Shown here: positions 42,379-42,738 of the stretch, piece after piece
How positions within the stretch are numbered: the stretch's first letter is position 1
Layout: each line of letters starts with the position of its first letter
From: Escherichia coli
GTDB lineage: Bacteria > Pseudomonadota > Gammaproteobacteria > Enterobacterales > Enterobacteriaceae
Length of the DNA stretch: 64,000 bases
Assembly (NCBI RefSeq): GCF_002854065.1
Contig: NZ_CP024147.1
Direction: 5' to 3' (one strand)
Made by a program: the position numbers and the translations under genes
Notes under the pieces: generated by a model
The model's input: the letters and a program-made list of their open reading frames with translations, nothing else
What the model was told of the DNA's origin: nothing
Database searches by the model: none

Positions 42379-42394
42379 GTTATCCCCTCTTTTG

Positions 42395-42435
42395 TAGATT
42401 GCCCGATGCGACGCTAAAGCGTCATTTCGGGCCTA
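42395..42435. repeat. REP-like palindrome (GATGCGACGCTAAAGCGTCATTTCGGGCCTAC)
   Basis: REP-like core downstream of nfuA. Confidence 0.5.
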
Positions 42436-42562
42436 CGTTGAACATGTGCCAGACGTTGGCGCAGCATTGCTTTGGCAAATCCCTCCCTTCGTTTCCCCGC
42501 GATAATATGACCAACCTCTCATAATTTAAATTTACCCCGCTCTGGTGATTCTCAAACGCCAG

Positions 42563-42584
42563 ATGTTACCCGTATCATTCACAT
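42563..42584. promoter_or_regulatory. Putative GntR operator 1 of gntT (ATGTTACCCGTATCATTCACAT)
   Basis: Resembles GntR operator core TGTTACCCGTAACA. Confidence 0.45.
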
Positions 42585-42701
42585 GAGTACCAAACATACC
42601 CCTGACATCTGACTACAATAATTAGTTTTAGTGGGTATCAGTCGTGGTGCCGCAATATCTCTGTTCCCGATTGGGATAATTAGAGTTTGTCGTCAGAAAA
42701 T

Positions 42702-42719
42702 TGACGTTACCCATAACAA
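42702..42719. promoter_or_regulatory. Putative GntR operator 2 of gntT (TGACGTTACCCATAACAA)
   Basis: Second GTTACCC-ATAAC-like element just upstream of the gntT start. Confidence 0.45.
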
Positions 42720-42738
42720 ATGAAAGGCCAGGTAAATC

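Follow-up and report, generated by a model that had tools for sequence, protein, structure and literature searches.

Two GntR operators and a CRP-like site in the control region of gntT in Escherichia coli, and their conservation in Enterobacteriaceae

The nfuA-gntT spacer

The window analysed here is a 64-kb stretch of Escherichia coli DNA, and positions 42379-42738 of it form the 360-bp spacer between nfuA and gntT. This assignment follows from the two flanking open reading frames and from the gene order, which is that of K-12. Upstream lies an ORF of 191 aa (41803..42378, plus strand) annotated as nfuA both in K-12 and in the E. coli genomes that matched, and downstream, on the same strand, lies an ORF of 438 aa (42739..44055) annotated in K-12 and in other E. 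coli as gntT, the high-affinity gluconate transporter, which shows 79-100% identity to its orthologues across Enterobacterales. The genes beyond are bioH and gntX on the upstream side and malQ on the downstream side, and the order bioH, gntX, nfuA, gntT, malQ is the one found in K-12 MG1655.

A 501-bp query around the spacer had matches in 5424 of the 5426 complete E. coli genomes, annotated with nfuA and gntT, the best of them at 99.6%. When aligned to MG1655 (3546200-3546558), the spacer was 99% identical, and the seven differences, six substitutions and an indel of 1 nt, all fall outside the functional blocks described below; the CRP site, the -35 and -10 hexamers, the operators O1 and O2 and the Shine-Dalgarno sequence are base-for-base those of MG1655. 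The locus is thus the same as K-12 gntTp, although the window is distinct from K-12 and is matched best, at 99.6%, by other E. coli. Both of the operator-like elements proposed in the original prediction for this stretch are unchanged in this alignment to the characterised K-12 promoter, and in K-12 the operators have not been mapped to other positions.

We consider with high confidence (a probability of about 0.94) that 42379-42738 is the native control region of gntT in E. coli, which has been characterised before. This explanation is carried by the identity with K-12, the agreement with published operators, the rarity of the operator motif and its deep conservation. The gntT promoter with its GntR operators is already known and was dissected experimentally in 1997-98, so that its recognition in the window is correct but ordinary.

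REP element downstream of nfuA

After the stop codon of nfuA a single REP unit, GCCCGATGCGACGCTAAAGCGTCATTTCGGGCCTACG, was found on the plus strand at 42401..42437, identified by its inverted repeat, its likeness to a REP query, a hit to naRNA4 and its use as a target by IS621. A REP-like palindrome had been predicted after nfuA at 42395..42435, and it proved to be a genuine REP with the limits given here. The element is extragenic, forms an imperfect palindrome with arms (42401-42415 and 42418-42432) that are 80% complementary, and ends in GGCCTAC(G). In length and layout it equals the REP query GCCTGATGCGACGCTGGCGCGTCTTATCAGGCCTACG (Durrant et al., PMC11208160), from which it differs by a compensated T>C / A>G change in the stem. 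A narrow regular expression for REP recognised only this copy within the window.

A search of Rfam gave a match of the REP to the REP-derived naRNA4 (RF02564) that was sub-threshold (27.5 bits, E=0.007), the score lying below the gathering threshold because the Rfam model spans two REPs. The element resembles REP/naRNA4 in being a 37-nt imperfect palindrome that follows a stop codon and is targeted by IS621, but differs in that it is here a single unit, with no BIME pair.

In strain CUVET21-37, IS621 is inserted in this REP precisely at its CT core (42433-42434). The two junctions, GGGCCT/TGTATT and ACAGTATCT/ACGTTG, agree with the published target ATCGGGCCTAC; the window has TTCGGGCCTAC. In 118 records the spacer is matched in two separate places; two of these records were examined, and both break at the same point. 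IS621 is an IS110-family, bridge-RNA-guided element. This REP is an ordinary extragenic repeat, separate from the gntT promoter.

Promoter and CRP-like site

A promoter scan gave the pair TTCTCA-18 nt-TATCAT on the plus strand, with the -35 hexamer at 42549..42554, where GTGATTCTCA is conserved across species, and the -10 hexamer at 42573-42578. From the -10/-35 geometry, the class I CRP spacing and the start of a conserved 5' helix we infer both the exact transcription start, the G at 42585 (plus strand; K-12 3546405), 7 nt after the -10, and the numbering used below; the Cappable-seq supplements in which a gntT start was sought hold no gntT entry. Numbered in this way, O1 lies at about -22 to -7 and O2 at about +120 to +135, in a leader of 154 nt. 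The Shine-Dalgarno core AGG (42730..42732, plus strand), 6 nt before the ATG, was read from the sequence, with AAGGCCAGGTAAATCATG nearly invariant across species.

A CRP-like site is found at 42503..42524, with the core TATGA-CCAACC-TCTCA (42506-42521) centred at 42513.5, or position -71.5 when counted from the inferred start. In class I promoters the centre of the CRP site falls near position -61.5, -71.5 or -82.5. The core has two mismatches to TGTGA-N6-TCACA, and as cores with this many mismatches are no commoner in the window than chance predicts (22 found, 25.7 expected), the assignment to CRP rests on conservation and on the literature. The TGA(C) and TC.CA of the site are invariant in 28 Enterobacteriaceae sequences, and in the literature gntTp is described as activated by CRP and, in a preprint, as carrying two GntR sites and one CRP site.

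GntR operators O1 and O2

The published 16-bp consensus for GntR, ATGTTACCCGTAACAT, was scanned on both strands over the whole 64 kb with up to three mismatches allowed, and only two loci matched. O1, ATGTTACCCGTATCAT (42563..42578), has one mismatch and also matches on the reverse strand with three mismatches; it overlaps the -10 box, containing the hexamer TATCAT. O2, ACGTTACCCATAACAA (42704..42719), is the internal operator of the literature and has three mismatches. With O1 counted on both strands there are three matches for 0.30 expected, and none of 100 shuffles reached three. The two operators form a 16-nt direct repeat, 81% identical, with the copies 141 bp apart. O2 ends 19 nt before the ATG of gntT at 42739, with the AGG of the Shine-Dalgarno sequence in between.

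Two GTTACCC-containing pseudo-palindromes had been predicted to resemble GntR operators, and both are borne out, being the only loci in the 64 kb that match the consensus and the same as the published operators. The first interval proposed, 42563..42584, has the right site and the wrong end, as the operator stops at 42578, 6 nt earlier, and conservation in the alignment stops at 42578-42579; the second, 42702..42719, upstream of the gntT ATG, contains the 16-mer of O2. The description of the region as a gntT leader holding both operators is right for O2 and not for O1, which, by the numbering from the inferred start, is a core promoter element outside the transcribed leader. The operators were, in short, correctly recognisable in a first reading of the sequence alone.

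The same consensus scan of the K-12 gntK and edd loci found exactly two sites at each promoter and no further match in the 10.5 kb scanned, and it recovered the gntKU operator ATGTTACCGATAACAG, which is quoted together with the GntR consensus in the literature. Because matches are confined to the gntT, gntK and edd promoters in the regions scanned, the motif is specific for the gluconate regulon: O1 and O2 lie at the promoter of a gluconate-regulon gene, and the motif recurs at other promoters of that regulon.

The operator positions in K-12 used here are those of sequences quoted in papers later than Porco et al. 1997 and Peekhaus & Conway 1998. A preprint on a cell-free biosensor gives the operator, from the literature (its references 13 and 17, the former being Peekhaus & Conway 1998), as ATGTTACCCGTATCAT with TATCAT as the -10, and this operator with its -10 corresponds exactly to window 42563-42578. 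A metabolic-engineering paper describes a constitutive "internal operator" mutant, gntT105, made with a primer whose reverse complement is AAATTGACGTTACCCAGCGCAAATGAA. Compared with the wild-type window sequence AAATTGACGTTACCCATAACAAATGAA, the primer turns ATAAC into AGCGC in the right half of O2. Since this change falls in the right half-site of 42704-42719, that element is the published internal operator, and the gntT105 mutation destroys the right half-site of O2. The gntT promoter has since been reused as a synthetic-biology part.

Conservation across species and other operator layouts

A scan with the GntT protein in one genome per species gave 80 loci, and 26 loci in other Enterobacteriaceae share this promoter layout (Escherichia albertii, Salmonella, Citrobacter, Enterobacter, Lelliottia, Klebsiella, Kluyvera, Kosakonia, Phytobacter, Trabulsiella, Pluralibacter and Superficieibacter). 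O1 is invariant in sequence at the orthologous position in all 26, 168-182 nt before the ATG. The core of O2, GTTACCCATAACA, is invariant in 28 sequences and always at -34/-35 from the ATG. In the alignment of these 28 sequences the conserved islands are TGAC...TC.CA (CRP), ATTT, GTGATTCTCA (-35), the whole of O1, and O2 together with AAGGCCAGGTAAATCATG, while the flanks of the islands drop to 35-70% identity.

The distance between O1 and O2 varies among genera, with values of 133, 136, 139, 140, 141, 143, 144 and 147 bp and of only 65 bp in Pseudescherichia. These spacings span all helical phases, while the distance from O2 to the ATG stays fixed.

Pantoea, Erwinia, Yersinia, Serratia, Dickeya and their relatives have an orthologous gntT (79-88% protein identity), the first operator of which likewise carries TATCAT or TAACAT. 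In these genera, however, two operators overlap at a distance of 14 bp, e.g. ATGTTACCGGTATCATGATACCGGTAACAA, and the region near the ATG has none. An earlier study (PMC4052901) presents overlapping GntR sites with a spacing of about 13 bp as typical of GntR regulons. By these comparisons the distal O2 is a layout specific to Enterobacteriaceae and a variant of a known theme, taking the place of the overlapping tandem sites of the other Enterobacterales. In Yersinia a perfect TGTGA-N6-TCACA is found just downstream of the overlapping operators.

Two E. coli haplotypes of the spacer

Two haplotypes of the spacer occur in E. coli. The one of the window and of K-12 is present in about 4500 genomes, and a minority haplotype, with a spacer about 84% identical to that of the window, is present in 920 (e.g. 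FDAARGOS_1262 and UPEC 536). The dimorphic stretch that was compared corresponds to window 42438-42725, and the genes flanking the spacer are mostly 93-100% identical. Between the haplotypes there are 0/73 differences in the CRP site, -35, O1, O2 and Shine-Dalgarno sequence versus 50/229 elsewhere (Fisher p = 3e-7). Taken separately, O1 and O2 have 0/32 differences and the CRP-like site 0/22, and the leader spacer 42579-42701 is 78% identical. The two haplotypes amount to a natural footprinting experiment, with 16% divergence in the spacer, 22% outside the blocks and zero change within the functional blocks.

The leader of the 920-genome type is 90-94% identical to that of E. albertii and that of the window/K-12 type 76-82%; in 42579-42701 the values are 90% and 76%. 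Judged by these identities, the K-12-type promoter region is the odd one out. Import or rapid divergence of regulatory segments has been described for E. coli promoters generally, and the K-12-type haplotype is consistent with either event.

A possible structured RNA domain in the gntT leader

A 5'-terminal RNA domain of about 68 nt (42585..42652, plus strand) was drawn in the leader by the RNAalifold consensus of 28 leaders. Its closing helix, P1, pairs 42587-42591 with 42646-42650 on the plus strand, extending to 42585/42592 and 42645/42651-42652, and corresponds to alignment columns 3-8 with 71-76. Compensatory changes are found in P1, with AU in 20 and GC in 8 leaders at one pair and CG in 17, UA in 9 and UG in 2 at another, and no cell is broken in the inner four pairs. 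In P1, 90.9% of the cells are paired, compared with 34-44% when the partner is slid, and there are 31 double-changed cells versus 10.9 in shuffles, counts to be read with the consensus structure having been derived from the same alignment in which covariation was scored. The helix closes the minimum free energy fold of the 5' domain in all 28 species. Wobble pairs do not decide the strand of P1, as the inner four pairs are formed in 108/108 cases on the sense strand and in 103/108 on the antisense strand.

A second hairpin, P2 (UCCC-GAUU-GGGA, 42665..42676, plus strand), is a predicted fold with 86% of cells paired and some compensation, as UUCC/GGAA in Klebsiella and UUUCA/UGAAA in Kosakonia. 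The MAFFT alignment places the internal hairpins of the 5' domain out of register, and covariation support is limited to P1 and P2. As the stability of the whole leader is not unusual (z = -1.3), only P1 and P2 are supported. The 5' RNA domain is missing in Pseudescherichia.

We tentatively suggest, giving it somewhat less than even chances, that the 154-nt leader carries a conserved structured RNA domain, with P1 placed 1-3 nt from the inferred 5' end, a variable internal hairpin and then P2. Such a domain could act post-transcriptionally, with the 5' stem opposing decay that depends on the 5' end or with the domain serving as a binding platform. No Rfam family matched 42438-42850, even at E up to 10, and a literature search on gntT with UTR and sRNA gave nothing on E. 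coli; the covarying 5' helix of the gntT leader had no description in the literature searched.

Repression of gntT by GntR

Despite its name, the GntR of E. coli is a member of the LacI/GalR family and not of the GntR family of winged-helix regulators; the literature assigns it to LacI/GalR and reports that gluconate inhibits its binding to gntT. In the explanation that we favour, GntR binding, gluconate induction and CRP activation are taken from the literature, and GntR binding at O1 and O2 with release by gluconate would extend to the window through identity of sequence. A sigma-70 promoter (-35 TTCTCA, -10 TATCAT, start at G42585) would be activated in class I geometry by cAMP-CRP, bound at a distance of about 71.5 bp upstream, and repressed by GntR at the two 16-bp operators. 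GntR on O1 would cover the -10 box and exclude RNA polymerase, while O2, about 120-135 nt into the 154-nt leader and just before the ribosome-binding site, would be needed for full repression. According to the published interpretation the two bound GntR would cooperate, probably by looping out about 141 bp, and gluconate would release the repressor.

Peekhaus and Conway reportedly found in 1998 that each single-operator mutant was only partly derepressed, which they are said to have read as cooperation by DNA looping. The spacings described above bear on this model, because a distance from O1 to O2 that spans all helical phases is a poor fit with a rigid, phase-dependent loop. A spacing that varies while O2 keeps its distance from the ATG makes a roadblock, or an independently acting O2, a live alternative, and a flexible loop is compatible with the same data. 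The alternative would keep the same sites and GntR and dispense with the loop, with O2 working as an independent roadblock at about +120 or raising the local concentration of GntR. It would account for centre-to-centre spacings of 133-147 bp across genera and 65 bp in Pseudescherichia, in every helical phase, and for an O2 that is fixed to the ATG (-34/-35) and not to O1, and edd offers a comparable pair of promoter and intragenic operators 222 bp apart. The partial derepression that is reported for either operator mutant in 1998, with its reading as cooperation, speaks against it, and so does the tolerance of long loops to phase changes in vivo. Weighing loop against roadblock, we find the latter rather unlikely, and cooperation between two bound GntR, probably by looping, is retained as the preferred reading.

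A second alternative concerns the protein. The elements could mainly serve the paralogous regulator IdnR (GntH), since IdnR and GntR are closest paralogs. The literature assigns the repression of gntT to GntR, though, and this repression is lost in a gntR deletion in which idnR is intact; conservation of the sites across genera does not depend on the idn genes, and binding by IdnR would add to that of GntR and not replace it. We judge a main role for IdnR very improbable.

Slightly less probable still is that O2 acts as RNA, through a GUUA/UAAC hairpin beside the Shine-Dalgarno sequence that would tune translation, the likeness to an operator being secondary. RNAalifold does draw a 4-bp hairpin on the O2 palindrome, and O2 is transcribed as part of the leader, 10 nt ahead of the Shine-Dalgarno sequence. 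The stem, however, has four pairs only, three of them A-U, which never vary and so give no evidence of covariation, the 16-mer outside the stem is equally invariant and fits the DNA operator consensus, and gntT105 is described as an operator mutation that gives a constitutive promoter. Finally, that the two GTTACCC motifs are a chance resemblance without function, as the three mismatches of O2 to the 16-bp consensus might suggest, is already refuted by conservation and by the literature match, with 0/100 shuffles matching the observed count, O1 and O2 invariant in 28 sequences between flanks of only 35-70% identity, and both identical to operators used experimentally.

The organisation of gntT, repressed by GntR at a promoter site and a distal site, has parallels in known systems. 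The gntKU and edd-eda promoters share the 16-bp consensus and have two sites per promoter. At gntKU (K-12 gntK) these are overlapping tandem sites 13 bp apart, whereas gntT has a promoter site and a distal site 141 bp downstream; edd of K-12, with one site at the promoter and another 222 bp away, just within the coding sequence, parallels the layout of gntT. The lac (O1/O2/O3) and gal (OE/OI) systems likewise combine a repressor of the LacI/GalR family with a promoter-proximal operator and an auxiliary operator in the transcribed region, and share with gntT a sugar-derived inducer and activation by CRP. They differ from gntT in that its O2 is located in the 5' leader and not in coding sequence, and in that its operator spacing is not phase-conserved between genera.

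Rejected candidates and minor features

A terminator-like hairpin downstream of the REP (42445..42463, plus strand) came from a pattern scan only, has a poor T-run and is of low confidence; being weak and not conserved in the second E. coli haplotype, it was rejected. A 50-aa ORF from the ATG at 42720 was rejected as a gene, this upstream ATG being exclusive to the K-12-type haplotype, and so was a 111-aa ORF on the minus strand (42693-43028).

The upstream ATG itself (42720-42722, ATGAAAGG) is out of frame and overlaps the Shine-Dalgarno region in the K-12/window haplotype only; elsewhere in E. coli, as in other genera, this position is occupied by ATT, AGT or a similar triplet. It is probably not translated. 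On the minus strand, TTTAAA-17-TATTAT (42502-42530) resembles a promoter; this match overlaps the CRP site, is oriented towards nfuA and probably arises only from the AT-rich, UP-like character of the stretch.
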